In this document: piece after piece, positions 11,999-61,459 of the stretch
Layout: each line of letters starts with the position of its first letter
How positions within the stretch are numbered: the first letter of the stretch is position 1
DNA from: an uncultured Gammaproteobacteria bacterium
GTDB taxonomy: Bacteria; Patescibacteriota; Patescibacteriia; CAZGFX01
Reading direction: 5' to 3'
Assembly: GCA_964524845.1 (NCBI GenBank)
Contig: CAZGFX010000002.1
Span: 227,428-291,427, forward strand
DNA length: 64,000 nucleotides
The notes under the pieces: model-generated
What the model saw: only the letters and a program-made list of their open reading frames with translations
Database searches by the model: none
Told to the model about the DNA's origin: nothing
Translations under genes and position numbers: made by a program

Positions 11999-12073
11999 TG
12001 GTGGGTCCAGTGGGGGTCGAACCCACGACCAATAGCTTAAAAGGCTACTGCTCTACCACTGAGCTATAGACCC
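11999..12073 (-). tRNA. tRNA-Lys (anticodon UUU), CCA encoded
   Basis: Reverse complement GGGTCTATAGCTCAGTGGTAGAGCAGTAGCCTTTTAAGCTATTGGTCGTGGGTTCGACCCCCACTGGACCCACCA folds as a cloverleaf. Acceptor GGGTCTA/TGGACCC, anticodon loop CTTTTAA, T-loop TTCGACC. Confidence 0.85.
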
Positions 12074-12174
12074 ATGAGTGGTAAATTAGAAAAGACAAAA
12101 CAGATACATATTAGAAGAACTATAAGATCTTGGCAACCCGCCCCGCAGATCGAACGAAAGTGAGATTGTGCGGG

Positions 12175-12201
12175 GAGCTATAGACCCATGAGTGGTAAAT
12201 T
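12175..12201 (-). repeat. 27-bp direct duplicate of tRNA-Lys 5' end (13 nt) plus 14 nt of its upstream flank
   Basis: gagctatagacccatgagtggtaaatt is identical at 12061-12087 and 12175-12201. A 22-nt direct repeat ccgccccgcagatcgaacgaaa occurs at 12138-12159 and 12275-12297. Hairpins ccccgca...tgcgggg and gtcctgag..ctcaggac lie between. Confidence 0.7.
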
Positions 12202-12380
12202 CTAAATGAAACAATACTTAAATTTTCAAAAAACCACAATAGCTCGGTAACCTTGTCCTGAGCTTGTCTCAGGACCGCCCCGCAGATCGAACGAAAAACA
12301 AAAAACCTGTTGTATTATATGTGCTTTTTTTGTTTTTAGCAAGACGTTTTTTCATATTGCTTTAAATGTAATTTTTGGAA

Positions 12381-17607: not shown

Positions 17608-18327
17608 TTACAACTTTCCAAGGAAAACTCGCTCAAAAATATCTCCGTGCAAAACCTTATCCCCAGGTCCTTCAGTAACAACACGACCCTTGTCTAGAAT
17701 ATATGCCCTATCAACAACAGACAAGAGAGACTTAATATTGTGTTCAACAATCATAATTGCCGTATTGTGTCGTTCGTTTATTTCTTTTATTTTTTCAAAA
17801 ATTTCTTTCACAATCTTCGGAGCAAGACCAAGTGTCGGTTCATCAAGCAAAAGAACTTTCGGATCGCTCATAAGTCCGCGAGCAAGCGCAACCATTTGTT
17901 GTTGTCCTCCCGAAAGCGTTCCTGATGATTGTTTCAGTCTTGATTTTAATATTGGAAACAACTCCATAACTTCTTCAAACTTAATATCCGCGCCTCTTTT
18001 GTCATGAAGTACGAAACCACCTAATTCTATATTTTCTCGAACCGAAAGTGATGGAAAAACCCTTCTCCCCTGCGGTACAAAAGAGATCCCCAAGCGTACC
18101 ATATGATGAGGAATCGGATCAATCTGCTTTTCGTGCCAAAATACTTTTCCTGAATCGATCGGAGCAATTCCAAAAACAGCTTTCAAAATTGTACTTTTCC
18201 CAGCGCCATTAGGACCCATGACAGCAACGATCTCTCCTTCGTCAATAGCAACACTAGCACCATCAAGCGCCTTAACTCCTCCGTAATGTACGGAAATATC
18301 TTTTAGCTGTAATAATGTTTCTTTCAT
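17608..18327 (-). CDS. livF: branched-chain amino acid ABC transporter ATP-binding protein (LivF-type)
   Basis: Walker A GPNGAGKST. ABC signature LSGGQQQ. Walker B LLLDEP. Confidence 0.85.
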   Translation of the reverse strand: MKETLLQLKDISVHYGGVKALDGASVAIDEGEIVAVMGPNGAGKSTILKAVFGIAPIDSGKVFWHEKQIDPIPHHMVRLGISFVPQGRRVFPSLSVRENIELGGFVLHDKRGADIKFEEVMELFPILKSRLKQSSGTLSGGQQQMVALARGLMSDPKVLLLDEPTLGLAPKIVKEIFEKIKEINERHNTAIMIVEHNIKSLLSVVDRAYILDKGRVVTEGPGDKVLHGDIFERVFLGKL

Positions 18328-18389
18328 TTACCCTGTGAAATAAAATTTTTTATTATCGTTCGAACTTGTTTATTGTGTCACCACGAATG

Positions 18390-18606
18390 AATATTATCAT
18401 CATAAGCTTACATTGTCATCCTGAACAATGTCATCCTGAACTAACTTTGTCATCCTGAACTAACTTTGTCATCCTGAACTCGTTTCAGGATCTATGTATC
18501 TGTTTCAGGATCTACCTTGATACATTGTATTTTAGTAAAATTTATTTCTCATATTATCAAAAGTTACACGGTAGATTCTGAAACGAGTTCAGAATGACAG
18601 TGTTGT
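18390..18606. repeat. MITE-like element copy A (repeat family 1)
   Basis: Tandem caatgtcatcctgaa units. Core flanked by TIRs gtcatcctgaactcgtttcag ... ctgaaacgagttcagaatgac. Near-identical core at 26110-26285 and 61231-61432. Confidence 0.6.
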
Positions 18607-18646
18607 ATAATTCGCAATTTGTAATTCGCAATCCGTAATTCAACAC

Positions 18647-19378
18647 CTACTCCCCCAAATATGCCTCGATGACACTTCTTTTCTTAAGCACGTCTTCCGC
18701 TTCACCTTCCGCAAGAAGTTGTCCGCTATCCATCACAATAACATGATCCGAAAGTTCTCTGATAATGTCCATATTATGCTCTATCAGAACGACCGTCTTA
18801 CCATGAGAACGCAATTCCTTGATGACAGTAACTATAATTTTTCTCATTTCCGGAAAAAGACCAGCGAATGGTTCGTCGAGAAGATAAATTTCAGCTTGTA
18901 CAGCAAGCGCTCTCGCGATCTCTAGGAGTTTTCTTTGTCCATAAGACAACTCACGTCCCAGCGCTGTTCTTTTTTCCCAAAGACCAACTTTTTTTAAAAG
19001 TTCCTCTGCACGTCCGAGATGAAACTTGCTGTGTGTTTCAAACAAACTATTAAAAACATTTCTGTCCGTAAGCACCACAAGAAGATTATCGAGCACGGTC
19101 ATTTGTTCGAAAAGTCTCACCTCTTGAAACGTGCGTGTTATTCCATATAAAAATGAATCGTGTGGTTTTATCTTCTTTAAACACGCACTGTCAATACAAA
19201 TCGTACCGCCGTCAAACTGAAGCATACCACTCAGTACGTTTGTAAGAGTTGTTTTTCCTGATCCGTTTGGTCCTATGACGCTTGTTACCTTCCCTTGTTC
19301 TATCTCAATCGAAAGGTCATCTACCGCCCGAATTCCATTGAATCGTTTTGTCAGATTTGCTGTTTTAAGGACGTGCAT
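18647..19378 (-). CDS. livG: branched-chain amino acid ABC transporter ATP-binding protein (LivG-type)
   Basis: Walker A GPNGSGKTT. Signature LSYGQRK. Walker B YLLDEP. Confidence 0.85.
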   Translation of the reverse strand: MHVLKTANLTKRFNGIRAVDDLSIEIEQGKVTSVIGPNGSGKTTLTNVLSGMLQFDGGTICIDSACLKKIKPHDSFLYGITRTFQEVRLFEQMTVLDNLLVVLTDRNVFNSLFETHSKFHLGRAEELLKKVGLWEKRTALGRELSYGQRKLLEIARALAVQAEIYLLDEPFAGLFPEMRKIIVTVIKELRSHGKTVVLIEHNMDIIRELSDHVIVMDSGQLLAEGEAEDVLKKRSVIEAYLGE

Positions 19379-19489
19379 ATGAGTATTGTACTGATTTTAG
19401 GAATTAAAAGCAATGTTTTTGGCTTTGTTCTATATGTTTTATACAAAATAAAAAGACACCATGTAAATTAACACGATGTCTTATTAAAC

Positions 19490-19798
19490 TTATTCTAATA
19501 CGATACCCAAATTATTAGAAAAATGTTCGTTAATATAACCACAAATAGCAATCCAATTTCCCTCCACTTGAACGCAGGTTTTTGTGTTTTTTAAAATAGC
19601 TGTGTTGTTTTCCATAAAAAACACACATCCAGAATATCCATTCCCATAATTCTCAACTGTTTCGGTTTTGTCTCCTGCAAAAGCAAAAAACAAGACTTCA
19701 TCCGGATACGTTTTATCACCATCGTCAACAATCTCTGAATGAGGAATTTTTGTTAAACGTTTTTTTAAACCGTCCAATTTGTAATCCAAGAAAGACAT
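19490..19798 (-). CDS. small hypothetical protein (102 aa) embedded in the liv operon
   Basis: ORF with ATG start. No known motif. Flanked by a repeat element. Confidence 0.35.
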   Translation of the reverse strand: MSFLDYKLDGLKKRLTKIPHSEIVDDGDKTYPDEVLFFAFAGDKTETVENYGNGYSGCVFFMENNTAILKNTKTCVQVEGNWIAICGYINEHFSNNLGIVLE

Positions 19799-19874
19799 AA
19801 AAAACTCCTTTTTTTATTGTGGTTTTAATTATTCATTATATAAACATTTTTCATATCAAGTTACCATACTCAGA

Positions 19875-20150
19875 CACTTTTGTCAATAACCAAAAACCCC
19901 CTGTATAAAACAAGTTTTTCACTAATTTTCCTCGTAATTTCCCCTTCTCGTAATTCGTTCACCCTGTGAAATAAGATTCGAAACAGGCTGAGGTTTTGTT
20001 TATAAATTAATCAAAAATAATTGATTAAACATATATAATAGTAAAAATTAATCCGAATCTTAATTTCAGTATGAAATTATTTCACAGGGTAAATTCGCAA
20101 TCCGTAATTCTTCTCCCTTCTCGTAATTTCCTATCTCGTAATTCTTAATT
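19875..20150. repeat. non-autonomous copy of the TIR element (repeat family 2) with flanking ctcgtaatt-type short tandem repeats
   Basis: TIRs ttcaccctgtgaaataa (19958-19974) and ttatttcacagggtaaa (20077-20093). Upstream ccaaaaacc..tgtataaaacaagttt shared with the 24790 copy. Confidence 0.55.
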
Positions 20151-20154
20151 TATA

Positions 20155-21288
20155 TTATTCTTTATAATCAACAATCTTACCTCCTTTTATTTGTTTTAAC
20201 TGCAAATTAAGTCCTACAACATCTCCGTTTGAATCAAAATGATATGATCCGAGTACTCCATCATAATTTTTGATTCCATACAAATAATCTTTTACTTTAT
20301 CCGTGTTTGTTCCTACCTTCCCTATCGCCTCAGCAAGTAAATATATTTGATCGTACGCTCCGCCAGCGGCAAAAGGATAGGGTGGTTCTGAGTTATATTT
20401 TGATTTATATACTAACATGAAATCATTTGCTTTTGTATTTTTTGGATCAAAGACAGGTGTGTCAACCATAATTGCTCCCTCGGTTGCAGATCCGGATCCG
20501 GTAAATTCTTCTCCGGATAAAAACGCCCCATAAAGTTGTTGTTTCATACCAGCGTCGCGAATTTGTTTAACAATACGAGCGGCCGTTGGACCTGATTGTG
20601 GATTAAAAACAATTGCATCAGGGTTATTCTCCTTAATTTTTACAAGAAGAGATTTAAAATCCGTCGTTCCTGAAACAAATCTCTCTTGTGCTATAATCGT
20701 ACCACCTAATTCTATATAACGGTTTTTAAAAACATTTTCTATCGCGGTTGTATAATCGGTAAGCTCAGTAATAAGAGCTGTTTTTTTGTATTTTTTAATA
20801 ATTGTCTCAGCAAGAAGCTTTCCACTCTCAGCGTCACTTGGCCATGTACGAAAAACGTAATCTGCCATAGATGTAATTTGAGGACTTGACCCCTGCGCCA
20901 TTACAATAACTTTTTCTTTCTCTGTAATAGGAATGGAAGAGATCACTTCTCCACTACACACAAGCCCAATAATAAATTTTGTTTTATCAATAGACACAAG
21001 TTTTTGGGCAGCTATCGTCGCTTCTTTATTATTGCACTTACTGTCTTCATATATCGGTTCGATTCTTTTTCCATTAATGCCTACGCTCGCATTAATTTCA
21101 TCAATTGCAAGTGTAGTCGCATTCTTTATAGACTCTCCAAAAACAGCTGTTTCTCCTGAAAAAGATGCCATCACACCAATTTTTATCGTGTTTGAATCAC
21201 CGGTTTTTTTATCATTCAACACCGCATACCCGCCACCAATGATAACAAGTGCAATAATTATATAAAGAATTGTCTTATTTGATTTCAT
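20155..21288 (-). CDS. LivK-type (type I periplasmic-binding-fold) substrate-binding protein, TM-anchored
   Basis: N-terminal anchor MKSNKTILYIIIALVIIGGGYA. IKIGV...GE...G motifs of the Leu/Ile/Val-binding family. Confidence 0.8.
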   Translation of the reverse strand: MKSNKTILYIIIALVIIGGGYAVLNDKKTGDSNTIKIGVMASFSGETAVFGESIKNATTLAIDEINASVGINGKRIEPIYEDSKCNNKEATIAAQKLVSIDKTKFIIGLVCSGEVISSIPITEKEKVIVMAQGSSPQITSMADYVFRTWPSDAESGKLLAETIIKKYKKTALITELTDYTTAIENVFKNRYIELGGTIIAQERFVSGTTDFKSLLVKIKENNPDAIVFNPQSGPTAARIVKQIRDAGMKQQLYGAFLSGEEFTGSGSATEGAIMVDTPVFDPKNTKANDFMLVYKSKYNSEPPYPFAAGGAYDQIYLLAEAIGKVGTNTDKVKDYLYGIKNYDGVLGSYHFDSNGDVVGLNLQLKQIKGGKIVDYKE

Positions 21289-21299
21289 ATGTATTATGA

Positions 21300-22433
21300 T
21301 TATTGATTTATGTCTTCTAATTTTTTATTATGTATCCTTCTTAATATAAATTCGCGAACAGCATCTCCGTTTTTATCAATACTAATCATACCACTAGAAC
21401 CTTTATAATTTTGAACTGAGTATAAATAATCCTTGATACAATCTGCTTTATAATTATCTTTGCAGTAAACAATACCATCGTATAACACATTATAAACATC
21501 ATAACCCAGTGTAGCAACCATTGTATCTTTTAAAGAAGTTCCGTATTTTTTCTCATAAGAACTAATTAGGTGTTGTGTCTCTGGGCTTTGTGTATCATAT
21601 TTATACATCGTAACGATCATGCCCTCAGCATCAGGATTGTCTGTAACAACACTCATACTAAAAGTTTCGTTTCCTATTATTTGTTTTTTAATTCCGAACT
21701 CTTTGGTCTGTTTGAGAACAATATTTTGTAACGCTGGAGTTAAAAATACATAAACCAAAGCATCTACGTCTTCGTTCTGTAGTTTTAATAATTGGCTTTT
21801 AACATCCGTGTCGGCTGAATTAACACTTTCTGAAACAATTGTATTTCCTGGGGTTTCCTTAAACTTCTTTTCAAAAACATCTTTCCAAGTAACAGAATAT
21901 TCATTCTTTTCGTAAAGAATACCTAGTTTTTTATATGAAAGTTTTTTAATCATTTCAGCAGAAACATCGGCACGTACTTCAGACGAAGCCGTTATACGAA
22001 ATACGTAATCTCCCGCTGTAGTTAAGTTCGGTGTAGCTGCAATTGGTGTAATTAAAATCACACGATTACTCTCTGCCAAAGGAGCAACAGCAAGAGTAGA
22101 GCTACTACACACTCCTGATATAAGAATTTTCACTTTATCAACATCTATAAGTTTTTGAGCGGCTGAAACAGCTTTTTTCGGATCACACATATCATCTTCG
22201 TATAAAACCTTAATTGTTTTACTTCCTATTTTTTGTTTTTCTTCCTCAGCAAGACGCAAAGAATTAACAGATTCTTCATATGCTCCCGCAAGAGGTCCTG
22301 TAAGAGGCCCAAAATATCCTATCTTTATCACATCAGAATTATTATCAGCTTTCTCATTCTTGAGCATCGCATACCCACCACCAATGATAACAAGCGCGAT
22401 AATTATATAAAGAATTGTCTTATTTGATTTCAT
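21300..22433 (-). CDS. LivK-type substrate-binding protein paralog
   Basis: First 22 aa and ~40 bp of upstream DNA identical to the 20155..21288 gene. Type I SBP fold motifs. Confidence 0.8.
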   Translation of the reverse strand: MKSNKTILYIIIALVIIGGGYAMLKNEKADNNSDVIKIGYFGPLTGPLAGAYEESVNSLRLAEEEKQKIGSKTIKVLYEDDMCDPKKAVSAAQKLIDVDKVKILISGVCSSSTLAVAPLAESNRVILITPIAATPNLTTAGDYVFRITASSEVRADVSAEMIKKLSYKKLGILYEKNEYSVTWKDVFEKKFKETPGNTIVSESVNSADTDVKSQLLKLQNEDVDALVYVFLTPALQNIVLKQTKEFGIKKQIIGNETFSMSVVTDNPDAEGMIVTMYKYDTQSPETQHLISSYEKKYGTSLKDTMVATLGYDVYNVLYDGIVYCKDNYKADCIKDYLYSVQNYKGSSGMISIDKNGDAVREFILRRIHNKKLEDINQ

Positions 22434-22444
22434 ATGTATTATGA

Positions 22445-23602
22445 TTATTGATTATTTTCGTATTTTATAATCTTTGAATCCTTAACTGTTTGCATCTCGA
22501 AACTATCTGGCGGCGTATCAACAAATCCATTTTGTTTAAAAGTAATTGATGTTAATGACACGCCCTGATAATTATTCGTTTTAGCAATGGCATCGCGAAG
22601 TATATCATTTCCCGCTAAATTTGTTTTCTCCAAAGCATCAGTAATAATTCCGACGGCATCATACGCGGTAATCGTACTCGGGAAAAGTACGTCCATTCCA
22701 TATTTTTGTTTGAATTTTTCATTAAATTCTATAAATCTTGACGAACGAACCGGAGCACTAAAATAAACATTTTCTAATTGTTTTGGGCATTGTGACAAAG
22801 AAACATCATTACCAGCGGCCTCAGTAGCTAACAGTGGTATCATAAGACCCATATCCTTCATTTGTTGTAATAAAGCGCATTCATTTATATCTCCAACCAC
22901 CATAAACAAAGCATCTGGTTTTGATTGTTTTATTTTCAAAAGATGAGTACGAAAATCCGTCACAAGCGGATTACCAAGATCAATATCCTCAACAATATTA
23001 ACTCCATAACTCGGAGCCCTCTCTACAAAAATATCATGTGTAAACTTCCAAAAACCACCATCAAACACACGCATCAAAGCGATGTTTTTCAAGTTCTTTT
23101 TCTTCGCAAAATCGAGAACGACATCAATACCAACTCTACTGTCATACCATGTTCCAAAAAGATATTCGTATGATTTTTGTGCTTCAACATTATCGGTGGT
23201 ATTGTGACCAATCATAGGAATCCGAGCCGCCTCAATCGCTGGAAGTATTGCTTCTGTGGGTTCGTCCCATTGTGCACCGACAATTGCTTTTACTTTATCG
23301 ACACTGATGAGTTTATTTGCAACAAGTCCGGCGTTTTTTAGCTTATCAATTGACAAGTCCTCTCCAATAAACTCAATTCTTTTTCCTTTTATACCTCCGT
23401 TGATATTAATTTCTTCGACTGCCAGTTCCGCGCCCCTTAACTCCTCAAGTCCCATTGATGCGCCGGCACCAGTCAAAGCAAACACTCCTCCTATTTTTAC
23501 TGTACCACTGTTCTGTCTTGATTGAAACAAAACATATCCTACAAAAACAATAATAATGATAATAACTGCGATTTTAAATATTCTATTACTTTTCATAATC
23601 AT
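22445..23602 (-). CDS. LivK-type substrate-binding protein paralog
   Basis: N-terminal TM anchor. VKIGGVFALTGAGAS...GIKGKRIE motif block. Confidence 0.8.
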   Translation of the reverse strand: MIMKSNRIFKIAVIIIIIVFVGYVLFQSRQNSGTVKIGGVFALTGAGASMGLEELRGAELAVEEININGGIKGKRIEFIGEDLSIDKLKNAGLVANKLISVDKVKAIVGAQWDEPTEAILPAIEAARIPMIGHNTTDNVEAQKSYEYLFGTWYDSRVGIDVVLDFAKKKNLKNIALMRVFDGGFWKFTHDIFVERAPSYGVNIVEDIDLGNPLVTDFRTHLLKIKQSKPDALFMVVGDINECALLQQMKDMGLMIPLLATEAAGNDVSLSQCPKQLENVYFSAPVRSSRFIEFNEKFKQKYGMDVLFPSTITAYDAVGIITDALEKTNLAGNDILRDAIAKTNNYQGVSLTSITFKQNGFVDTPPDSFEMQTVKDSKIIKYENNQ

Positions 23603-23614
23603 AAATTAAAAAGA

Positions 23615-24769
23615 TTATCCGTCATATCTCATGAACTTTCCATCTTTAACTGTCTTGAAGAAAATTTGCTTAATTGCATCACCATTTTCATCAATATCAA
23701 ATGTACCACTTGCACCCTTAAAACCTTTTGTTTCGTATAAACATTGTTTAACTGCATCAACATCATCTCCCTCAGCCTCAACGCATCCACTCAACAAATA
23801 TGCCGCATCATATGCGTTTGCCGCAACTGTGTCTGGTTCTGTGGAAAAACGCTCAACGTACTTAGAATAAAACCTCTTTACCGCCGGTGATTCGTCGTGA
23901 TTATCGTACGAATATGGATATAGAAGTCCTTCGGCATATTTTCCTGCGTTTTTCACTATTTCAGGACCTTCTGTTCCTAGATTATAAAATTGTGCATCAA
24001 TTCCAAGTTCACGCGCTTGTTTAAGAATAAGGCCGATTTGTTTGTTCCCTGCTATTGTAAAAATACTGGTCGGCTTTTGCGCTTTTAACTTTAATAATTC
24101 AGTTTTAAAATCAGTCGCCTTACTATCAAATTTTTCTATACTACCAATTGTTTTACCACTTGATTCAAAAACAGAACGAAACCTGTTTATATACGGATCA
24201 CTAATGGCTGTATTAATGGCAAGAAAATGAATTACACCTCCTTGCATATGCTTCGCCACGAAACGAGCTGATACAGGTGCCTCTTGTGCAACATTATGAA
24301 TAATTCTGAAAACATAATCTCCTGCTTGTGATATCTCATCTGTTTGAGCACTATGAGAAATCATAATTGTTTTTGATTGCTCTGCAATCGGAGCAACCGC
24401 CAACACTTCTGATGAATTATACGGACCAATAATATAATGGATTTTATCTAAATCAATAAACTTACGAACAGCACTTACAGCAACTTGTGGCTCATACCGA
24501 GTGTCTTCATACAGAAAATTAATTTTGTATTTGTTTTTTGTGTTTGAATTAATTTCTTCTTCCGCAATCGAAATTCCATTTTTTGTAAACTCACCAGCAT
24601 CTGCACGAACCCCGGTAAGAGGAGCAGGAATCCCAATTGTGATTGTCTTAGGATAATCTGGATCATGCCTCAACATAATGACATATCCTGTGACAATAAT
24701 AATCGCAATAATAATTATATATACAGTAATACTAGCCTTTTTTATATTCATATCTTGTTCGTTCAACAC
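23615..24769 (-). CDS. LivK-type substrate-binding protein paralog
   Basis: N-terminal TM anchor. ITIGIPAPLTG motif. Type I SBP fold. Confidence 0.8.
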   Translation of the reverse strand: MLNEQDMNIKKASITVYIIIIAIIIVTGYVIMLRHDPDYPKTITIGIPAPLTGVRADAGEFTKNGISIAEEEINSNTKNKYKINFLYEDTRYEPQVAVSAVRKFIDLDKIHYIIGPYNSSEVLAVAPIAEQSKTIMISHSAQTDEISQAGDYVFRIIHNVAQEAPVSARFVAKHMQGGVIHFLAINTAISDPYINRFRSVFESSGKTIGSIEKFDSKATDFKTELLKLKAQKPTSIFTIAGNKQIGLILKQARELGIDAQFYNLGTEGPEIVKNAGKYAEGLLYPYSYDNHDESPAVKRFYSKYVERFSTEPDTVAANAYDAAYLLSGCVEAEGDDVDAVKQCLYETKGFKGASGTFDIDENGDAIKQIFFKTVKDGKFMRYDG

Positions 24770-24789
24770 TCATATTTTATTACTTTTAA

Positions 24790-25180
24790 GCCAAAAAGCA
24801 ACTACCAAAAAACCTTGTATAAAACAAGTTTCCACTAATCCTTCTCGTAATTTTCCCTTCTCGTAATTCGTTCACCCTGTGAAATAAGATTTGAGCCTTC
24901 TTTTAATAAACATCTTACCATAAAAAGTCTTTAAATACTTTTCTCTTCGTGTGGCATCCTGTTGATTAAGACAAACCTCAAAATAAATAAGTTTTAAAGG
25001 TCTTCTCTCTTTTGTTGATGGTATTAACCCTTTATTATGTCGCTCAAATCTTAACTTCAAATTTTTTGTATACCCAGTATACATCTTATTATCTTTTTTA
25101 CTCTTTAATACATATGTATAAAACATATAATAATTGTTTTATATAAAAAATTTGGAGTTATTTCACAGGGTAAATTTATA
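24790..25180. mobile_element. TIR-bounded element carrying a GIY-YIG nuclease gene (repeat family 2, putative autonomous copy)
   Basis: Inverted repeats ttcaccctgtgaaataa (24871-24887) and ttatttcacagggtaaa (25158-25174) bracket the GIY-YIG ORF. Same TIRs and flank occur without the ORF at 19875-20150. Solo TIRs at 18328, 26043 and 56985. Confidence 0.5.
24872..25126 (-). CDS. GIY-YIG nuclease family protein (YhbQ/UPF0213-like, 84 aa)
   Basis: MFYTYVLKSKKDNKMYTGYTKNLKLRFERHNKG matches the GIY-x10-YIG...R...E..H core. Conserved downstream E in LIYFE. Confidence 0.8.
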   Translation of the reverse strand: MFYTYVLKSKKDNKMYTGYTKNLKLRFERHNKGLIPSTKERRPLKLIYFEVCLNQQDATRREKYLKTFYGKMFIKRRLKSYFTG

Positions 25181-26042
25181 ATTTATATTCTCCTTTAAGT
25201 CCTTGTGGGCGATATATCATAAGAAAAACAAGAAGTGCTCCATATACCACCTGTCGCATCTGTGCCGCTATATCGGTTGGAAATCCAACAAAACGCATAA
25301 TTTCCGGTAACAAAATAAGAAACAAGGCACCAAGAAGCGATCCTTCTAAATTAGCAAGACCGCCTAAAATAATTATCGCTAATATAAAAATAGATTCCGG
25401 AAGCGCGAATGTCGACGGATCAATAAATGTAATATAAGAAGCAAAAAGAGCTCCGGCAATTGCGGCCATACCCGCCGATATCATAAAAATAACAAGTTTA
25501 TACTGCAGTGTGTTATATCCGAAAACTTGTAACGCTTTTTCGTCATCACGAATAGCTTTGAGAGCGCGTCCAAACGATGACTTGGTAACATATCGCGCAC
25601 ATATATATACAATGATCATGAATAACGCACTTAAAACAAGAAACGTCAGATTATCACGAAAAACAAATCCGAATATCTCCGGTCTTCCTATTCCTGGAAT
25701 ACCGAGCGGGCCTCGAGTAAGATCCTGCCAGTTCAATAAAATACTAAACACAATAACATTGAAACCAAACGATGCAAGAGCATAATAATCTGATTCAAAT
25801 TTGCTCATAACGAATCCAATTAGAAAGCTCACCGCCATCGAGAGAATGATACTGAATATAACAGCAACAAAAAAATTAACACCGAGCTCAGTCATCAGAA
25901 TTGCCGATGCATACGCACCAACACCATAAAAAGCCGCGTGCGTTACTGACAAAAGCCCTGTATATCCTACGACCAAATTCAAACTTATACCAAGTATGGC
26001 ATATATTGTGAAAAGTATCGCTAAATGTATTAAATATTCCAT
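25176..26042 (-). CDS. livM: branched-chain amino acid ABC transporter permease (LivM-type)
   Basis: 8-10 TM helices. Permease family motifs (GLLSVTHAAFYGVGAY). Confidence 0.8.
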   Translation of the reverse strand: MEYLIHLAILFTIYAILGISLNLVVGYTGLLSVTHAAFYGVGAYASAILMTELGVNFFVAVIFSIILSMAVSFLIGFVMSKFESDYYALASFGFNVIVFSILLNWQDLTRGPLGIPGIGRPEIFGFVFRDNLTFLVLSALFMIIVYICARYVTKSSFGRALKAIRDDEKALQVFGYNTLQYKLVIFMISAGMAAIAGALFASYITFIDPSTFALPESIFILAIIILGGLANLEGSLLGALFLILLPEIMRFVGFPTDIAAQMRQVVYGALLVFLMIYRPQGLKGEYKL

Positions 26043-26109
26043 TTACCCTGTGAAATAAGGTTTTTTTAATTCGTAATTCAAACTTTTTTATTGTACTACA
26101 TTAAAAGAA

Positions 26110-26285
26110 CATTATCATCTTAGATTGACCTTGTCATGTTGAACATTGTCATCCTGAACTGACCCTGTCATCCTGAACTCGTTTCAGGATCTACCTTGAT
26201 ACAATGTTTTCTAGGAAAACTTATAACACATATTATCAAAAGTTACACGGCAGATGCTGAAACGAGTTCAGCATGACATTGTGGC
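26110..26285. repeat. MITE-like element copy B (repeat family 1), followed by cgtaattc short tandem repeats to 26343
   Basis: Same TIRs and core as 18390-18606. Occupies the livH-livM intergenic spacer. Confidence 0.6.
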
Positions 26286-26343
26286 GTAATTCGTAATTAT
26301 TCTTCCCTCTCGTAATTTTCCCTTCTCGTAATTCGTAATTGTA

Positions 26344-27258
26344 TTACTTCTTTTTAAATATTCCCGATGGTCTGAAGAGAAGGAAAACGATAAGCACCCC
26401 AAATGCAATAGCGTCTTTCCACTCGCCGGATATCTTCCAAATACCGAAGTTCTCTATAAATCCGAGAAGCATCGCTCCAGCAAAACCTCCGTATGTATTT
26501 CCAACACCTCCGATAATTGCCGCGATGACACCCTTGAGAAGCAGTGCCATACCCATCGTAGGTTCAAGTCCCGTGTCAAACCCAACAAGTGCACCAGCAA
26601 GTCCGGCAATGGCCGAACCGATAATAAATACAATCGATATTATTTTATTGACATTGATACCAACCACTTTCGAAACCTCCTGATCATCGCTTACAGCACG
26701 AATAGCATATCCGATTTTTGTCTTTTTCAAGAAAATTACAAGTCCTCCCATAATCAACGCCGCGCACACCAACATGATCAATTGTATTTCTGTAATAACA
26801 CCTCCAAAAATAGTATATACTTTATTTTCTGTAAGTGATGTCGAGAGTGTCTGAAATTGACTTGTAAACAAAATCGCTATGATCGCCTGAATTGCCGTAA
26901 AAGCACCGAGAGATGCGACAAGATACACCATGAGAGACGCTTTTCGCGAACGAAGTTGTCTATATATGGACACCTCAAGTCCCCATCCGATCATGGCGGC
27001 AAGAACAACACCAAGAATGACGCTTGGAATGATACCAATCTCCGTATTTTTAATGAAAAACAATGCGGTATAACCACCAACAGCAGCCAGCACCCCGTGT
27101 GCCAGATTAAAAAACTTGGTCGTATTGTACGTCAAATTAAAACCAAGAGCCACGAGCGCATAAATCGCGCCGGCAATAATACTATTGACTGTAAGTTGAA
27201 TGACTATATCCACATGGCTTATTATAGCGAAAATACGAAATAAATCAAAAACACCCAA
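26344..27258 (-). CDS. livH: branched-chain amino acid ABC transporter permease (LivH-type)
   Basis: 304 aa, 8 TM. LivH-like motif GFNLTYNTTKFFNLAHG. Confidence 0.8.
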   Translation of the reverse strand: MGVFDLFRIFAIISHVDIVIQLTVNSIIAGAIYALVALGFNLTYNTTKFFNLAHGVLAAVGGYTALFFIKNTEIGIIPSVILGVVLAAMIGWGLEVSIYRQLRSRKASLMVYLVASLGAFTAIQAIIAILFTSQFQTLSTSLTENKVYTIFGGVITEIQLIMLVCAALIMGGLVIFLKKTKIGYAIRAVSDDQEVSKVVGINVNKIISIVFIIGSAIAGLAGALVGFDTGLEPTMGMALLLKGVIAAIIGGVGNTYGGFAGAMLLGFIENFGIWKISGEWKDAIAFGVLIVFLLFRPSGIFKKK

Positions 27259-27290: not shown

Positions 27291-28391
27291 TTATTTTACA
27301 GGGATCTGCTTTCCGTTTTTAATTTCATAAACACTTGCACGAGATATTACAATTCCGTCCTTATCAACAGAAAGAGGTCCTAAAACTCCTTCAAAATTCG
27401 TAATTTCTTGAAGTGCTTTTGCTATTTCACCAGTTGACGGATAATGATCTTTTCCGACTTTTTCTGTAGAATAGACAAACAAATTAAATACATCATATGT
27501 ATTCGGTGCACCAGGAGTAACTTCCTTATTAAATTCAGAATTAAATTTATTTCTAAATTCATCTGTTGCATTTGCGGCATCAACATACCAACATCCTTCA
27601 ATTAACTCTTTTTGATTTGAAAAAGAAAAAGCCTCAATAGACGTCAGTGGAGTTGTAATTCCAAGATCTTTTATTTGTTTAGTAATTATTTCCAGTTCTG
27701 GAGAAAAAGCAAGAATATATATAATATCAGGATTTTTCTGTTGTATTCTAGTAATTATCGTTTTAAAATCTTTTTCTCCACTGTTATACCATTCGCTTTG
27801 AACGATAGATATATCAGTATCTTTCAAATGTTCTCTGATTTCGTCATCGATGGCTTTCGCTCCTTGTTGATTCAATGCAATTGTTGCAATCTTTTTTATG
27901 CCTCTTTTTTTAAATTCTTCTACAACAAGTTTTGCTTCTTCTGATGGAGGTGTCCAATGCATAAAATTATATTCTCCTTTTGCTATATTTGCATCAGACG
28001 CAATACCAAAATGCACCACTTTATTCGTCTCAGCAACTGGTGTAACAACATTTCCACTTCCTGAAGTAAATGATATAACAGCGCTTACCTTATCAATATT
28101 TATTAACTTATTAACAGCGCTTGCTGTCATTTTTGGATTAAGTTGATCATCTTCATAAACAACATCATATTTATATTTTGTTGTCTTTTTGTCTTTCATA
28201 GCAAGTGTTAAAGAATTTTTAACACCTTCACCAAGATGTGCCATATCACCGGTCAATGGAAGAATTACTCCTATCTTTATCGTCTCCTGTTTATCGTTTT
28301 GTGATGTCTTGTTTGTTGTAATAGTATATACCGCTCCTACAACAACCAAAACAGCTACCACCCAGACTAGAATTTTGTTTTGTTTCGACAT
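27291..28391 (-). CDS. LivK-type substrate-binding protein paralog
   Basis: N-terminus MSKQNKILVWVVAVLVVVGAVYTITTNKTSQNDKQETIKIGVI identical to the 30808..31944 gene. Type I SBP motifs. Confidence 0.8.
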   Translation of the reverse strand: MSKQNKILVWVVAVLVVVGAVYTITTNKTSQNDKQETIKIGVILPLTGDMAHLGEGVKNSLTLAMKDKKTTKYKYDVVYEDDQLNPKMTASAVNKLINIDKVSAVISFTSGSGNVVTPVAETNKVVHFGIASDANIAKGEYNFMHWTPPSEEAKLVVEEFKKRGIKKIATIALNQQGAKAIDDEIREHLKDTDISIVQSEWYNSGEKDFKTIITRIQQKNPDIIYILAFSPELEIITKQIKDLGITTPLTSIEAFSFSNQKELIEGCWYVDAANATDEFRNKFNSEFNKEVTPGAPNTYDVFNLFVYSTEKVGKDHYPSTGEIAKALQEITNFEGVLGPLSVDKDGIVISRASVYEIKNGKQIPVK

Positions 28392-28412
28392 ATAAAAGAA
28401 TTATTATCGATT

Positions 28413-29561
28413 TTATTTATAAATTTCCGGTATTCCATTTCGAATAATTTTAACAACATGCCCTCCAATACGATCACCATCCGCACCTATTTCTACAAGA
28501 CCAGAAGCGCCTTTCCAGTCTTTGACAGATCTGAACCATGCAGCAATTTTAGAAGTGTCAGTACCGACCGCCTTAATAGCGTCACGAATCATATATACAG
28601 CGTCATATTCCGTCTGTCCGTAACTCTGATATGGCATCTCTTTTCCAAATTGTTTTTGATATTCATTAATAAAATTTTTAAATATAGAATTAGTAGGATC
28701 GACACCAAATTCAGCTGCAAAAGCTCCTTCAAGAGCACTTTTATTACGTTGAACCATCTCATTTGCACCTGACACAGCGTCAGACACAATAAGAGATGGC
28801 TTCCAACCTAAATCGGCCATTTGTTTAAAAATGCGATCAGCTGCGGCCGGAGTTTGTGGAACAACGAATAATGCATCTGGGTTCTCATTGCGCAACTTAG
28901 TAAGAATAGTCTTAAAATCAGTAACAGTCGAAGGGAATTCTTCTTTTACTACTGTTCCGCCAAGTTCAGAAAATTTATTATTGAAAGCATTGTATATACC
29001 AAGAGCATAGTCGGTTTGTTCCTGAATAAATGCTATCTTCTTCCATTGTTTATTTGTGTATGCTAATTGAGCAAGTGTTGATCCTTGTGTCGCATCACTT
29101 GGATAATTTCGAACAAAATAATCACTTATTCCGGTCAGTGCTGGACTACTTGACCCAGCAGAAATCATAAATACTTTATTTTCCAGAGCAATTGGAACAG
29201 CGGATAGCGATTCACTACTGCAAAATCCCCCAATAATAATTTTTACTTTATCAACAGTAATAAGTTTTGACGCGGCGTTTGCACCATCTTTGCCACTACA
29301 CTTACCGTCTTCTACTATGAGGTTTATTTTCTTTCCGTTAATACCTCCTGATGCATTAATCTCGTTAACTGCCATTTGATATATATTACGAGCCGGTTCA
29401 CCATAAAAAGCCGCGTCTCCTGACAATGGCACTATTACTCCTATCTTTATCGTCTCCTGTTTATCATTTTGTGATGTCTTGTTTGTTATGATTGTGTACA
29501 CAGCACCTACAATCACAATTATCGCCACAATCCATACTAAAACATTATTTCGTTTACTCAT
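28413..29561 (-). CDS. LivK-type substrate-binding protein paralog
   Basis: Near-identical N-terminal 45 aa to the neighbouring paralogs. SBP fold. Confidence 0.8.
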   Translation of the reverse strand: MSKRNNVLVWIVAIIVIVGAVYTIITNKTSQNDKQETIKIGVIVPLSGDAAFYGEPARNIYQMAVNEINASGGINGKKINLIVEDGKCSGKDGANAASKLITVDKVKIIIGGFCSSESLSAVPIALENKVFMISAGSSSPALTGISDYFVRNYPSDATQGSTLAQLAYTNKQWKKIAFIQEQTDYALGIYNAFNNKFSELGGTVVKEEFPSTVTDFKTILTKLRNENPDALFVVPQTPAAADRIFKQMADLGWKPSLIVSDAVSGANEMVQRNKSALEGAFAAEFGVDPTNSIFKNFINEYQKQFGKEMPYQSYGQTEYDAVYMIRDAIKAVGTDTSKIAAWFRSVKDWKGASGLVEIGADGDRIGGHVVKIIRNGIPEIYK

Positions 29562-29675
29562 AGATTAATTAATTATACCTAAATATTACTCTCTATCTCT
29601 GTCGAAAATCAAGTTTTTATCAACAAAAAAAACGTTAAAAAACCAGGCTTATTACAATTAAAATAAGTTATTAAT

Positions 29676-30779
29676 TTATGGTTTTTTTTCAAGCAATACT
29701 TGCTTTCCGTCTCTTATCTCATATACATCAGCCTTTGAAACAACTATCCCATCTGTATCTATCGTGAGAGATCCCATAGCTCCAGAAAAATCTTTGATTA
29801 TATGAAGATTTTTTATTATCTCATCCGCGGTTGGACGATTGTTTGTTTTTACGTTCTCAATCGCATACACAAGTAATTTTATTATATCGTATGAATTTGG
29901 CGCACCTTGAGTGATTGTTGTTTTGTATGTATTTTCATATAATTGTTTGAATTGTAGTGACGGATCTCCAGCATCAACATACCAACTTCCTTCAAGTAAT
30001 TCTTTGTTCTTTGCCCATGAAAACGCTTCAATCGAAGTAAGTGGTGTGGTAATTCCTAAATCTTTAATTTGTTTTATAACAAGCTCGAGTTCTGGAGAAA
30101 AAGCCTTAATAGATATTATATCTGGATTTCCTTTTTGTGCTTTAAGAATAACCGTTTTAAAATCAGTATCTCCTTTCATAATCAACTCATCTCCGACTAT
30201 TTCAATATCAGTTTTTTTAAGATATTCGTTTGCCGCAGAATGAGTTGCCAACGCGCCCTGTTGATTTAAAGTAATTGAAGATATTTTCTTTATTTCTCTT
30301 TTTTTCAACTCTTCTACAAATAATTTTGCTTTTTCAGCAGGGGGTGTCCAATGAATAAAATTATATTCTCCTTTGGCAATATTCGCATCATTTGCAATGC
30401 CGAAATGAATAATTTTATTCGTCTCAGCTATCGGAGCAATAACATTTCCACTTCCTGAAGTAAACGATATAACCGCATCAACCTTATCTATATTGATAAG
30501 CTTATTGATTGCTGAGGCGGTTTTTTTTGGATCAAGCTGGTCATCCTCAAATATGAGTTCATATTTATAATGTGTGTTTTTTATTGAATCATAAGCCAAA
30601 AGAACACCATTTCGAACACCTTCTCCAAGCGAAGCCATGTTCCCACTCAAAGGAGCGATAACTCCTATTTTAATTATATTATTATTTTCTAAATCTTTTT
30701 TTGTCGCGACAATATAAATTCCACCAACAAAAAATAGACATATCACGATCCATATGATAATTTTATTTTCTTTTGACAT
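29676..30779 (-). CDS. LivK-type substrate-binding protein paralog
   Basis: N-terminal TM anchor. IKIGVIAPLSGNMASLGEG motif. Confidence 0.8.
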   Translation of the reverse strand: MSKENKIIIWIVICLFFVGGIYIVATKKDLENNNIIKIGVIAPLSGNMASLGEGVRNGVLLAYDSIKNTHYKYELIFEDDQLDPKKTASAINKLINIDKVDAVISFTSGSGNVIAPIAETNKIIHFGIANDANIAKGEYNFIHWTPPAEKAKLFVEELKKREIKKISSITLNQQGALATHSAANEYLKKTDIEIVGDELIMKGDTDFKTVILKAQKGNPDIISIKAFSPELELVIKQIKDLGITTPLTSIEAFSWAKNKELLEGSWYVDAGDPSLQFKQLYENTYKTTITQGAPNSYDIIKLLVYAIENVKTNNRPTADEIIKNLHIIKDFSGAMGSLTIDTDGIVVSKADVYEIRDGKQVLLEKKP

Positions 30780-30807
30780 AAAAAATATTATTAATATCGA
30801 TTATTTT

Positions 30808-31944
30808 TTATTCATTTAATTTAATAAACGTTCCGTTTTCTAATTTCATTAATTGAACATCTCTTCTTGCTTCTCCGTTTTCATCGAAATCTATTTTTCC
30901 TCCCGCACCAACGTAATTGTGTGTTTCATATAAAACATTTTTTATTTTTTCTGTATTATAACCGACTTTTTTTACAATATTTATAATAATTTTAAAAGCA
31001 TCATAACCATTTATAGAATAAATTCCTGCGTTTTCGCCATATCTTAATTTATATATATTATTGAAATCTGTGTAAAAAGGGTTATTTTCATCTATTCCTT
31101 CATTAGCAATAATTGTTCCTTCGCTTGAATTTTTAGCTTGTTTATATAAATCATCTGATTTTAAAGAAGATATGCCAAACCACGTCGGCTTCAGTCCTAA
31201 CTCAATGGATCTATTAAAAAAAGTTGCGGCTTGTTCAACAAGCAAAACAGTAAACACTGCGTCTGGGTTTTTTTCTTTTAAACTTAATGCTTTTGTTCTT
31301 AGGTCCATATCTCCTATTTGCAATAAATCACGTGCGATCAACTGTACTCCCATTGCAGAAAGCCTTTCTTCAAACGCATTAATATATGGTAAACCCGCTT
31401 CGTTATTCATTGCAATTGCAGCCACTCTTTTATAACCCTTTTTTTGTATATAATCAGCGATCGCATTTGCCTCGAAAGTCCCATTAACTCGATTTCTAAA
31501 AATAAAATCACCAGCATTGGTAATAGAAGGACTTGATGCAAGTGAAACAAAAAGAAGAACCTTGTTTTCATTTGCAATAGGTGCCATCGCCATAACAGAA
31601 CTACTCCCTGTTCCTGTAATAATTACTTTTACTCTATCAACCGATATTAGCTTTTGAAGTGCGCTAACAGAAGTTTTTGGATCACTTTTTCCATCTTCTA
31701 TTAATATTTGTATATTTTTTCTTACGCCATTTGATTTGTTCTCATTTTCAAAAGCTATTTCAATTCCATTTTTTACCCACCCTCCATATAATGACATTGG
31801 TCCTGTCAAATCTGCTATAACACCAATTTTTATAGTCTCTTGTTTATCGTTTTGTGATGTCTTGTTTGTTGTGATAGTATATACCGCTCCCACAACAACC
31901 AAAACAGCTACCACCCAGACTAGAATTTTGTTTTGTTTGGACAT
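30808..31944 (-). CDS. LivK-type substrate-binding protein paralog
   Basis: 5' ~130 nt identical to the 27291..28391 gene. SBP fold. Confidence 0.8.
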   Translation of the reverse strand: MSKQNKILVWVVAVLVVVGAVYTITTNKTSQNDKQETIKIGVIADLTGPMSLYGGWVKNGIEIAFENENKSNGVRKNIQILIEDGKSDPKTSVSALQKLISVDRVKVIITGTGSSSVMAMAPIANENKVLLFVSLASSPSITNAGDFIFRNRVNGTFEANAIADYIQKKGYKRVAAIAMNNEAGLPYINAFEERLSAMGVQLIARDLLQIGDMDLRTKALSLKEKNPDAVFTVLLVEQAATFFNRSIELGLKPTWFGISSLKSDDLYKQAKNSSEGTIIANEGIDENNPFYTDFNNIYKLRYGENAGIYSINGYDAFKIIINIVKKVGYNTEKIKNVLYETHNYVGAGGKIDFDENGEARRDVQLMKLENGTFIKLNE

Positions 31945-35627: not shown

Positions 35628-35636
35628 ATTATTCTA

Positions 35637-56812: not shown

Positions 56813-56820
56813 GATATTAA

Positions 56821-56984
56821 CAATGTCATCCTGAACAATGTCATCCTGAATAATGCCATCCTGAACAATGTCATCCTGAACAATGTCATCCTGAACAATG
56901 TCATCCTGAATTTATTTCAGGATCTATGTATCTGTTTCAGGATCTGTGTATCTATTTCAGGATCTGTGTATCTGTTTCAGGATG
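56821..56984. repeat. tandem arrays of 6 x 15 bp (caatgtcatcctgaa) then 3.5 x 20 bp (tttcaggatctgtgtatctg); arms mutually complementary
   Basis: Direct reading. Units are the same motifs that form the family-1 MITE termini. Followed by a solo family-2 TIR at 56985-57005. Confidence 0.7.
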
Positions 56985-57529
56985 AAATTATTTCACAGGG
57001 TAAATTCATAATTTTTCTAAAATCAAAAACCCCGTAGCAAAAAATAACTAGATAAATATGCTACGGGGTTCAACCTATACCTATATACACGTCTGAGATA
57101 CGTATTACTATCTATACGAATAAGCTTTTGGATGAGGATTTGGGATTCGATCAGTTAGCCTCCATCTTTTTATGTGTACAAAATCTTTTCGACATTGGAA
57201 GTTTTCGGATCTTATGAAATAAGTTCTCGGACCTCCTTATGTGCCTAAAAACGATTTTGTAACGTGCCTATATATCGCCCGCATAGGAAGTTTAGTACAC
57301 GAACGAAACAATGGCATAAGTAAATATTGCTTGAAAAGTAACCACGGATTCCAAATGCACTCATCCACTATAGGTTTACGCCCACTTACAAAAAATTACA
57401 AATGAGAAAATCACCGTTTTGTACCCTGTTATGCACTTCTTATTTTTCCGCTAAAATAACATCTTTTAAAACAAGTTTATAATCATTATTTAACGAATAA
57501 AAAAAACAAACAGGAGAATTTAGTAGGGT

Positions 57530-61207: not shown

Positions 61208-61230
61208 AAAAACAGCTCGTAAAGCTGTTT

Positions 61231-61432
61231 ATGTCATCCTGAACCATGTCATCCTGAATTTATTTCAGGATCTATATATCTGTTTCAGAATCTTCCTTGA
61301 TACATTGTGTATTATGTCATTCTGAACTTGTTTCAGAATCTTCCTTGATACATTGTTTTCTAGGAAAACTTATATTTCATATTATTAAAAGTTACACTGC
61401 AGATGCTGAAACGAGTTCGGCATAACGCAATG
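61231..61432. repeat. MITE-like element copy C (repeat family 1, with internal 40-bp duplication)
   Basis: Same termini and core as 18390-18606 and 26110-26285. Confidence 0.6.
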
Positions 61433-61459
61433 ATTATCTTTCTATAAAAAATCAAAAAA

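Follow-up and report, generated by a model that had tools for sequence, protein, structure and literature searches.

Why does the same 16-nt sequence end exactly where two different transporter genes begin? The question arises in a 64,000-nt stretch of contig CAZGFX010000002.1 (positions 227,428-291,427; hereafter the window) from an ultra-small Patescibacteria bacterium. The window carries a liv-type ATP-binding cassette (ABC) transporter operon, all of it on the minus strand, in which 319 nt separate livG from livF and 301 nt separate livH from livM. According to the original prediction, a repeat in these spacers provides the translation-initiation context of livF and livM, with a weak AGGG as Shine-Dalgarno (SD) motif, and possibly a promoter. 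We conclude, with a probability of roughly 0.6, that the spacers are relics of selfish elements that dwell at gene junctions, resemble the intervening sequences (IVSs) of rRNA genes, and here are devoid of an open reading frame (ORF). The wider pattern of such elements is a more interesting lead than start-codon abutment in one operon.

One composite, present twice

Exact copies of the 16-mer TTATTTCACAGGGTAA lie on the minus strand directly 5' of the ATG of livF (18327) and of livM (26042), as had been claimed. The order of modules also holds in both spacers: the 16-mer (the arm of a repeat that we call family 2), a linker of ~65 nt, tandem half-units, a hairpin with 33-bp arms (family 1) and cgtaattc units. 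The genes and modules concerned are as follows.

17608..18327, minus: livF-like ABC ATPase gene, intact, with the orthologous start
18328..18343, minus: family-2 arm TTATTTCACAGGGTAA at the livF ATG; matches the terminal inverted repeat (TIR) of a GIY-YIG mini-element; Y-F-T-G-stop in frame with the ATG
18344..18412, minus: A/T-rich linker, ~65 nt, ~65-70% homologous to the linker of the other spacer; promoter-like GTGACA-18-GATAAT
18413..18480, unstranded: tandem half-units TTGTCATCCTGAACTAACT, 3.8 copies, equal to the left-arm units of family 1
18462..18604, unstranded: family-1 hairpin; 33-nt arms at 18462-18494 and 18572-18604, 88% complementary
18608..18641, plus: cgtaattc-type 7/14-nt units, TAATTCG x4.9 (AATTACG on the transcribed strand)
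18647..19378, minus: livG-like ABC ATPase gene
25176..26042, minus: livM-like permease gene (BPD_transp_2), 288 amino acids like its homologs
26043..26058, minus: family-2 arm TTATTTCACAGGGTAA at the livM ATG
26059..26130, minus: linker with one TCGTAATTC unit (26071-26079); promoter-like ATGATA-17-TACAAT
26131..26278, unstranded: family-1 half-units (26131-26159) and hairpin; arms at 26166-26198 and 26246-26278, 88% complementary
26285..26340, plus: cgtaattc-type array up to the livH stop; 16-nt unit TTCCCTTCTCGTAATT and 7-nt TCGTAAT
26344..27213, minus: livH-like permease gene; probable start GTG 27213, stop 26344-26346, C-terminus equivalent to that of relatives

When the two spacers are aligned on the transcribed strand they match over their full length at 81% column identity, the ~65-nt linker included. 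The homology ends exactly at the ATG and, on the other side, no more than ~5 nt from the stop codon of the preceding gene; conservation is 100% in the arm and ~65-70% in the linker. Because the spacers are homologous throughout, the two arm-ATG junctions are not independent events. The view of two parallel mosaics is thus replaced by that of two copies of one composite, and the alignment indicates that a pre-formed unit of ~300 nt was placed or copied at two equivalent positions.

The composite has two copies in the window, and no duplication is visible at the stop/start flanks. Its termini are an AATTACG array at one end and the family-2 arm at the other, and its sole stem is the internal one of 33 bp, each 33-nt arm of which (in the hairpin at 18462..18604) is itself a GTCAT-[8-bp palindrome]-ATC hairpin. 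Scored as z against shuffles, no TIR of the ~300-nt units is significant (best 14/17 and 11/12 matches, z 0.9 and -1.1), so that the composite is not a conventional miniature inverted-repeat transposable element (MITE). Arm and hairpin are repeated well above chance. Of the arm TTATTTCACAGGGTAA the window has 7 good copies; where chance would give 1.1 matches with up to 3 mismatches, there are 8, a count reached in 0 of 100 shuffles. Of the family-1 hairpin GTCATCCTGAACTCGTTTCAGGATC there are 7 copies, with 0 expected. CGTAATTC occurs 8 times, always on the plus strand and within liv spacers; since all eight cgtaattc units of the window point the same way, they cannot form a stem.

Both ATGs are genuine orthologous starts, because homolog lengths and N-termini agree: LivM homologs are nearly all 288 amino acids long, with 100% coverage and a conserved MEYLIH start, and LivF in relatives begins M(K/E)KETL. 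An assembly artefact at the livM junction was considered and rejected, since an independent Logan assembly (SRR12133403, labelled L116 here) is 100% identical to window positions 25024-26210 and spans the junction. A conserved mini-ORF ending at the TAA before the ATG, through which some coupling could have persisted, is absent from the livG-livF spacer, and the livH-livM spacer has only a non-conserved, TTG-initiated ORF of 12 codons.

Orthologous junctions and the GIY-YIG mini-element

We compared these junctions with 84 liv loci (~0.5 Mb) of relatives, labelled among others as Magasanikbacteria, Paceibacterota, Taylorbacteria and Pacebacteria, the closest LivM having 78% identity. The distance from livH stop to livM ATG was measurable in ~71 loci; it is 1 nt in 40 and at most 9 nt in ~52. 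At livG-livF, 20 loci have gaps of 1-3 nt and another 11 have gaps of 5-10 nt, nine of which measure 9 nt. No SD precedes the livM or livF starts of the relatives. Adjacent or overlapping stop and start codons lead to translational coupling of cistrons, and from these gaps we infer that stop/start coupling was the ancestral state of the liv junctions. The comparison of orthologous junctions, which had been proposed as a check, thus marks the repeat inserts as derived, the relatives being mostly coupled over 1-2 nt, and it speaks against the SD, which is missing from the orthologous junctions and from the other inserts alike. With a gap of only 1-2 nt, an insert can be tolerated only if it adjoins the stop codon as well as the start codon.

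Other selfish inserts occupy the same junction in about a quarter of the relatives. In ~18 of them livH and livM are separated by 400-510 nt encoding an ORF of 114-133 amino acids of the four-helix-bundle or 23S_rRNA_IVP family (TIGR02436, E=1.8e-29 in L152 and 1.8e-18 in L175; Pfam PF05635 in L117). These ORFs are bracketed by inverted arms of short, low-complexity periodic units, significant (z 5.6-12.6) for 11 of the 12 distinct inserts; the arm sequence varies between loci and complementarity is kept within each locus. The right arm ends 0-13 nt before the livM ATG. The arms of the L152 insert, AATTACGGATTACG.../...CGTAATCCGTAATTCGTAATT, consist of AATTACG/CGTAATT, the same units as the cgtaattc of the window. 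Other relatives have MNT/HepT toxin-antitoxin pairs at livG-livF, a HEPN/NTase pair before livH, or ORF-less hairpins of 43-127 nt at livG-livF. Judged by these sequences, the liv junctions are recurrent landing sites for selfish inserts. Remnants of a four-helix-bundle gene were looked for in the window and not found, and neither family-1 nor family-2 copies were found in the 84 loci.

The arm at the two start codons leads to an element of which the window has one intact copy. Three features belong here.

24871..25174, minus: intact family-2 element, ~300 bp; 17-nt inverted arms at 24871-24887 and 25158-25174; 84-amino-acid GIY-YIG ORF at 24872-25126
19958..20093, minus: ORF-less family-2 derivative of 136 nt inside a cgtaattc array; 17-nt arms at 19958-19974 and 20077-20093, 94% complementary
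19926..19958, plus: cgtaattc array beside the family-2 derivative; sister arrays at 20096-20144 and 24839-24871 in the same orientation

The intact element begins 1 nt after the livM stop. Its protein matches PF01541 (E=1.9e-16, residues 1-71), the catalytic domain being the only match; the nearest solved relatives are the UPF0213 proteins 1ywl and 1zg2 (E~5e-4). No linked DNA-binding domain was found in the 84 amino acids, and the group I intron endonuclease model TIGR01453 scores 17.7 bits against a cutoff of 56. The 3' arm consists of the last codons of the ORF, TAT TTC ACA GGG TGA, so that the protein ends ...SYFTG*. The ORF-less copy at 19958-20093 and palindromes of ~57 nt elsewhere are short, non-coding, TIR-bounded and multi-copy and share their TIRs with the ORF-bearing element, as MITEs do. 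As a possible target-site duplication, TTCG flanks the copy at 19958-20093 on both sides, but next to the intact copy TTCG stands at one end only, with TTTA at the opposite end.

The GIY-YIG family is large (>4,197 clusters at E<=1e-10). Among the best 120 homologs nearly all have 84-86 amino acids and 75-84% identity, and 112 of the 120 end in KSY(L/F)TG. The exact 18-mer TTATTTCACAGGGTAAAT is present in >115 genomic stretches from Bacteroidota (several copies per metagenome-assembled genome, often at contig ends), Cloacimonadota, several Patescibacteria lineages, Bdellovibrionales and Neomarinimicrobiota. For 56 of 98 matches outside Flavobacterium a partner arm is located no more than 90 nt away, the two typically forming a palindrome of ~57-70 nt. 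GIY-YIG proteins adjoining the motif are 63-76% identical to that of the window in Peribacteria (L054), Prolixibacteraceae (L093), Bacteroidales (L094) and Edwardsbacteria (L107). This distribution fits a transfer of the element across phyla; Patescibacteria have been predicted as donors of GIY-YIG genes in a survey (PMC12455944). Neither the family-2 palindrome nor the protein has matches in IMG/VR viral contigs. As a separate observation, the same 18-mer, lacking a partner arm, stands at one orthologous intergenic locus in ~25 Flavobacterium species (L008, L010, L012 and ~22 others).

Why the arm is so well conserved can be seen from ten distinct elements, in which pairing is kept along with synonymous codon changes (89% of cells paired). 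TTC, TTG or TTA (Phe/Leu) in the 3' arm pairs with GTGAAA, GTCAAA or GTTAAA in the 5' arm, and a change of GGG to GGA is matched by CCC to TCC. The covariation score is 0.143 against 0.083+-0.019, a value reached by 1 of 500 shuffles (pair 12-31 is GC in 6, CG in 2 and UA in 2). Two constraints thus act on the arm, one from coding and one from pairing, which accounts for its extreme conservation. The recurrence of an identical 16-18-mer across phyla is likewise explained by a terminal repeat that is coding sequence.

For 12 distinct loci we measured how far the GIY-YIG stop lies from the next host start in the same orientation. The distance is 0-20 nt in seven.

L267-272: 0 nt, ...ACAGGGTAA / ATGAAA of folD (TAA/ATG)
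L160: 0 nt, at livF
L257/258: 2-3 nt, ychF
L260: 8 nt, epimerase gene
L107: 11 nt
L266: 11 nt
L201: 20 nt
L093: 41 nt
L273: 92 nt
window: 120 nt
L054: ~150 nt
L276: 520 nt

The gene upstream of the element ends a few nt before the GIY-YIG start or, in L107, inside the 5' arm. The most telling case is L160 (75% LivM identity), in which a decaying GIY-YIG gene, carrying a 23-nt inverted repeat of its own, takes up the whole livG-livF junction between the stop codon and the start codon: GGAGAATGA / TTCATCCGCC ... GGCGGATAA / ATGGAAAAAGAA. In L211-220 the element splits a four-helix-bundle gene. All copies examined lie between, rarely inside, protein-coding genes, and none in an rRNA gene helix. 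Since the ancestral gaps were 1-2 nt and intact elements often end 0-20 nt before a start, the exact abutment of arm and ATG needs no adaptive explanation.

One of these loci is noteworthy in its own right. In the Prolixibacteraceae stretch (L093, 1500-1900) the GIY-YIG element lies inside the 5' end of an NAD-epimerase gene, the first ~11 codons of which are duplicated on either side (MKILVTGTAGF... / MSKILITGTAGFIG...); a related element in L260 (1400-1800) stands 8 nt upstream of another epimerase start. These copies may reflect homing with co-conversion of the flanks.

Family 1 was also found beyond the two spacers. Its sites in the window are 18468, 18598, 26167, 26277, 56900, 61248 and 61316, and two further elements are present.

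56819..57003, plus: mosaic of 6 left and 3.5 right family-1 half-units fused directly to a family-2 arm (56988-57003)
61227..61447, plus: third family-1 hairpin element, lacking family-2 arm and linker

The general form is GTCAT-[variable palindrome]-ATC, and the 8-bp stems in the window covary (ATCCTGAA/TTCAGGAT, ATTCTGAA/TTCAGAAT, ATGCTGAA/TTCAGCAT). We counted 45 copies of the hairpin CATCCTGAACTNGTTTCAGGATC in 36 stretches from IMG/VR (L221-L256), in GC-rich and AT-rich contexts, often with an inverted partner 60-90 nt away (e.g. GATGCTGAAAC...GTTCAGCATGAC). In L225 the order is AATTCGTAATGCGTAAT, GTCAT hairpin, inverted hairpin, ATTACGAATTACGCATT, the cgtaat arrays forming the outer inverted arms. 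The conserved flanks and covarying stems suggest a hairpin recognised by a protein. Other GTCAT-type stems (TTCCGAA, TTGCGAGG..., TTTCGA...) are present in the same viral contigs.

Further repeats adjoin the two outlying family-1 elements. Just upstream of the third hairpin element, region 60947-61160 contains 2.5 perfect tandem copies of a 53-nt unit (GTCGGTGGATAAACTAGCGCCGCCTGCCCTTCTCTTGCGAAGCAAGAGATAGG) and then a tandem repeat of 22 nt; it is GC-rich relative to the genome and has an internal palindrome. A GC-rich 56-nt repeat containing the palindrome CCTGACATGCGTCAGG is found at 33487-33542 and 56713-56768 (84% identity), the second copy immediately upstream of the mosaic at 56819-57003, in a gene-free stretch of 1.2 kb (56735-57912).

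From high to low coordinates the operon consists of four livK genes (31944-27291), livH, the 301-nt spacer, livM, the 304-nt element, four more livK (24751-20155), a repeat-rich spacer, an ORF of 102 amino acids with a terminator-like hairpin, livG, the 319-nt spacer and livF. The eight livK-type genes for substrate-binding proteins (Peripla_BP_6; 20155-24751 and 27291-31944) are tandem paralogs, of which relatives have 3-7 copies, and include partial recent duplications (21196-21308 versus 22341-22453; 27570-28157 versus 29964-30551). The 102-amino-acid ORF (19490-19798) has a strong SD (AAGGAG) and no Pfam or NCBIfam match, and the hairpin (19482-19453) follows it, between the livK block and livG. 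Because this ORF and hairpin intervene, livG-livF is probably a separate transcription unit.

How the spacers may have arisen

Under the reading that we favour, the two spacers are paralogous copies of one non-coding mosaic built from selfish elements that live in transcripts at gene junctions. The sequences themselves show the anatomy of the spacers, their homology, their derived state, the family to which the element belongs and the covariation of its arms; the ORF-bearing ancestor and every effect on RNA and translation are deduced from these. One module is the AATTACG-type periodic units, as in the arms of the 23S-rRNA-IVS-type inserts at the same junction in a relative; a second the long family-1 hairpin of GTCAT-palindrome-ATC units; and a third the 3' TIR of the ~300-bp mini-element, which has the 84-amino-acid GIY-YIG nuclease as its sole gene and the same repeat mirrored at its other end. 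Intact elements insert between cistrons in the direction of transcription, with a stop often 0-20 nt before the host start, and so would keep the coupling chain. At livG-livF and livH-livM, where the nuclease ORF is absent, it would have been lost or never present, the arm being left as TAA/ATG, and other repeats would have moved in. As a consequence livM and livF would be uncoupled from the preceding cistron and initiated de novo on an A/U-rich, SD-less leader. The spacer transcripts are predicted to fold stably (-79.5 and -83.8 kcal/mol, z -3.0 and -4.3), chiefly through the 33-bp family-1 stem, which is not an intrinsic terminator because no U-run follows it. By analogy with rRNA IVSs, this stem is likely to be an RNase III or stability site and would segment the operon mRNA.

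Several points weigh against this. Only the arm of 16-19 nt ties the spacers to the GIY-YIG element, and neither residual GIY-YIG coding sequence nor the interior of the ORF-less derivative was found in the linkers (z<2); given a linker lacking residual ORF homology, the former ORF of the two spacers is something we infer rather than see. The spacers have no TIR of their own, and their copying to a second junction lacks an explanation. The original orientation of the arm is ambiguous, because in their TAA the solo arms agree with the 5' arm of the intact copy. The relatives, at most 78% identical in LivM, are too distant to offer an empty or intermediate site. In 5 of the 12 loci the GIY-YIG element stands 41-520 nt from the next start, so that tight abutment is common and not obligatory. 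Finally, processing by RNase III is proposed by analogy, and SD-independent initiation by analogy together with crude gene calls.

An alternative close to the original prediction is that the spacers were exapted: a promoter in the linker would make a short-leader mRNA, in which the arm serves as ribosome-binding context of livF and livM. Coupling is broken yet both genes are intact and of full length, so something must drive initiation, and promoter-like hexamers are present in both linkers. The best match, GTGACA-18-GATAAT (18381-18352), is however not conserved in the livH-livM spacer, and ATGATA-17-TACAAT (26118-26090) is weak, with CACAAT as its counterpart in the livG-livF spacer. With 55 promoter-like matches called in a 10-kb region against 38+-6 in shuffles, individual matches have low predictive value. 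The conservation of the arm (100%, against ~65-70% in the linker), which would fit a ribosome-binding role, is explained by its function in the GIY-YIG element, where it is both coding and paired and is identical across phyla. As for the proposed SD, AGGG stands only 3 nt from the ATG, and an SD-like 4-mer occurs 4-13 nt upstream of just 5 of 69 crudely called genes of the window (first-ATG ORFs of >=90 amino acids), only one of these within the ribosomal-protein cluster. Since SD motifs are nearly unused, AGGG needs no special reading, and SD-independent initiation appears, from these counts, to be the rule in this genome. Short or absent leaders would be normal here if the -10-like boxes found 4-10 nt before the ATG of other genes are a guide, a point that favours exaptation. 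What stands of the claim is that repeat-derived sequence supplies every base 5' of two genuine starts and, because the inserts broke a junction coupled over 1-2 nt, is now their only initiation context. The evidence falls short of showing that it evolved or was recruited as a ribosome-binding site, and we regard exaptation as unlikely. Read-through, processed transcripts and an internal promoter are each a possible source of livF and livM expression.

The -10-like boxes are an observation of their own: livG has TACAAT 6 nt before its ATG and livH has TATAAT 7 nt before its GTG, and examples lie at 19379-19395, 27214-27228, 28392-28412 and 35628-35650. They suggest that leaderless or very short-leader mRNAs are frequent in this organism. 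Geometry excludes an outward hybrid promoter that takes its -35 box from the TTCACA of the arm: as the ATG adjoins the arm, the -10 box would fall in coding sequence.

A second alternative is that the whole composite of ~300 nt is an active non-autonomous unit, mobilised in trans by the GIY-YIG nuclease or another enzyme and targeting stop/start junctions through ...TAAAT. Two copies in equivalent positions and the same orientation are what such a unit would produce. All copies continue ...GGGTAAAT, so that the AT of the ATG could be common to the arm; another GIY-YIG family, in L160, ends ...GGATAAAT followed by G, with the same TTCA/TAAA termini; and long ORFs start directly at the 16-mer or 18-mer in L088 and L097 (dnaG), the only such cases. 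Against this, the composite has no TIRs and only two copies in 64 kb, and an ATG after the 18-mer is not a general rule: G is the next base in 12 of 120 copies, which is no enrichment, and the distances of 98 genomic copies do not peak at 0. The evidence from target-site duplications is mixed, TTCG flanking one family-2 copy on both sides but not the intact one. We hold mobilisation of the whole unit to be unlikely, slightly more so than exaptation.

That the spacers are a dedicated cis-regulatory RNA, an attenuator or riboswitch-like leader of livF and livM, is very improbable: their predicted folds are significantly structured, but Rfam 15 has no family for any module at gathering or permissive thresholds (the latter return microRNA-hairpin noise, and the window passes only with tRNA-Lys), all modules are found again in settings unrelated to these spacers (56819-57003, 61227-61447, other phyla, viral contigs), and relatives lack the spacer altogether.

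Independently of the liv spacers, the tRNA-Lys gene (12002-12073, minus) has its 5' part and upstream flank duplicated 114 nt away (12061-12138 versus 12175-12252, 76% identity), a duplication that an integration or insertion at this gene could have left as a scar.

Comparison with known systems

The literature searched yielded no description of the family-2 element, of a GIY-YIG transposase of its kind, or of such elements at mRNA junctions. A cross-phylum GIY-YIG mini-element with a TIR at its coding end, together with IVS-like elements in about a quarter of the sampled liv junctions, thus appears to be undescribed in the searchable literature. The design of the element is unusually economical, its terminal repeat being coding sequence. 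Inserts of this kind turn tightly coupled operons into ones with long structured spacers, which should shift the stoichiometry of ABC-transporter subunits and the processing of mRNA in organisms with minimal regulatory capacity. For annotation, we suggest that these 16-mers and GTCAT hairpins be treated as mobile debris and not as regulatory leaders.

Short multi-copy hairpin repeats that can donate promoters, RNase III sites or stabilising hairpins are well known from the Correia elements of Neisseria, from enterobacterial repetitive intergenic consensus sequences or intergenic repeat units (ERIC/IRU) and from the repetitive extragenic palindromes and bacterial interspersed mosaic elements (REP/BIME) of E. 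coli. The liv spacers resemble them as non-coding hairpin repeats in intercistronic spacers, ABC-transporter operons included. They differ in not being TIR-bounded units, and their promoter or processing role is a prediction. To our knowledge, none of these repeats has a GIY-YIG partner or a TIR that is coding sequence.

A nuclease gene associated with dispersed palindromes is also found in the REP/REPIN-RAYT systems (RAYT, REP-associated tyrosine transposase), in which the enzyme is a Y1 (IS200-like) transposase, the REP is of the GTAG type and REPs are lineage-specific. Here too a single-copy nuclease gene is flanked by a palindrome that is dispersed in many short non-coding copies, and family 1 combines a conserved 5' motif with a variable palindrome (GTCAT-stem-ATC; compare GTAG-stem). 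The family-2 nuclease, however, is GIY-YIG and not Y1, its arm overlaps the ORF, and the arm is common across phyla. Pfam scans of the neighbouring ORFs found no Y1 transposase beside the repeats, and the family-1 motif is GTCAT...ATC, not GTAG.

Free-standing GIY-YIG homing endonucleases, such as the Seg proteins of phage T4 and I-TevI-type enzymes, share with the window protein the catalytic domain, residence in a selfish gene wedged between conserved genes, and horizontal spread. In contrast to them, the window protein has 84 amino acids and no DNA-binding domain, and family 2 is bounded by inverted repeats, has ORF-less derivatives and occupies many unrelated loci.

The closest parallel is with rRNA IVSs. 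The Coxiella IVS, a selfish element of 428 nt, has an ORF for a four-helix protein, variable tandem heptamers and a TIR stem of 28 bp that RNase III cuts (PMC4990558), and in Patescibacteria (the candidate phyla radiation) rRNA insertions other than introns encode GIY-YIG and 23S_rRNA_IVP proteins (PMC11270868). The elements described here are likewise small (~130-500 nt), co-oriented selfish inserts in a transcribed unit that keep the host function; they have a terminal stem around an optional small ORF from the same two families (S23p/IVP four-helix and tiny GIY-YIG), variable short tandem repeats beside the ORF, and a sporadic, horizontally transferred distribution. The terminal stem is found in the inserts of relatives (11/12) and in intact GIY-YIG elements (17-18-nt covarying arms), and an ORF in the L152 and L175 inserts, the window GIY-YIG element and L160; the two spacers of the window have neither terminal stem nor ORF, nor a remnant of an IVP gene. 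A further difference is that the hosts are junctions of protein-coding cistrons and not rRNA helices, and excision by RNase III would apply here by analogy. The GIY-YIG and four-helix ORFs known from Patescibacteria rRNA insertions thus also occupy the junctions of protein-coding operons. We tentatively propose, as a possibility short of an even chance, that the rRNA IVS belongs to a wider and so far undescribed class of selfish elements that are embedded in transcripts and colonise coupled junctions, in Patescibacteria and in other groups. The ~300-bp GIY-YIG element would be the smallest member able to act autonomously, with a TIR made of the last five codons and the stop, a stop that touches the host start and so preserves coupling, and MITE-like derivatives of ~57-136 nt that range from Patescibacteria to Bacteroidota; the liv spacers would be decayed and re-invaded remains of such elements.

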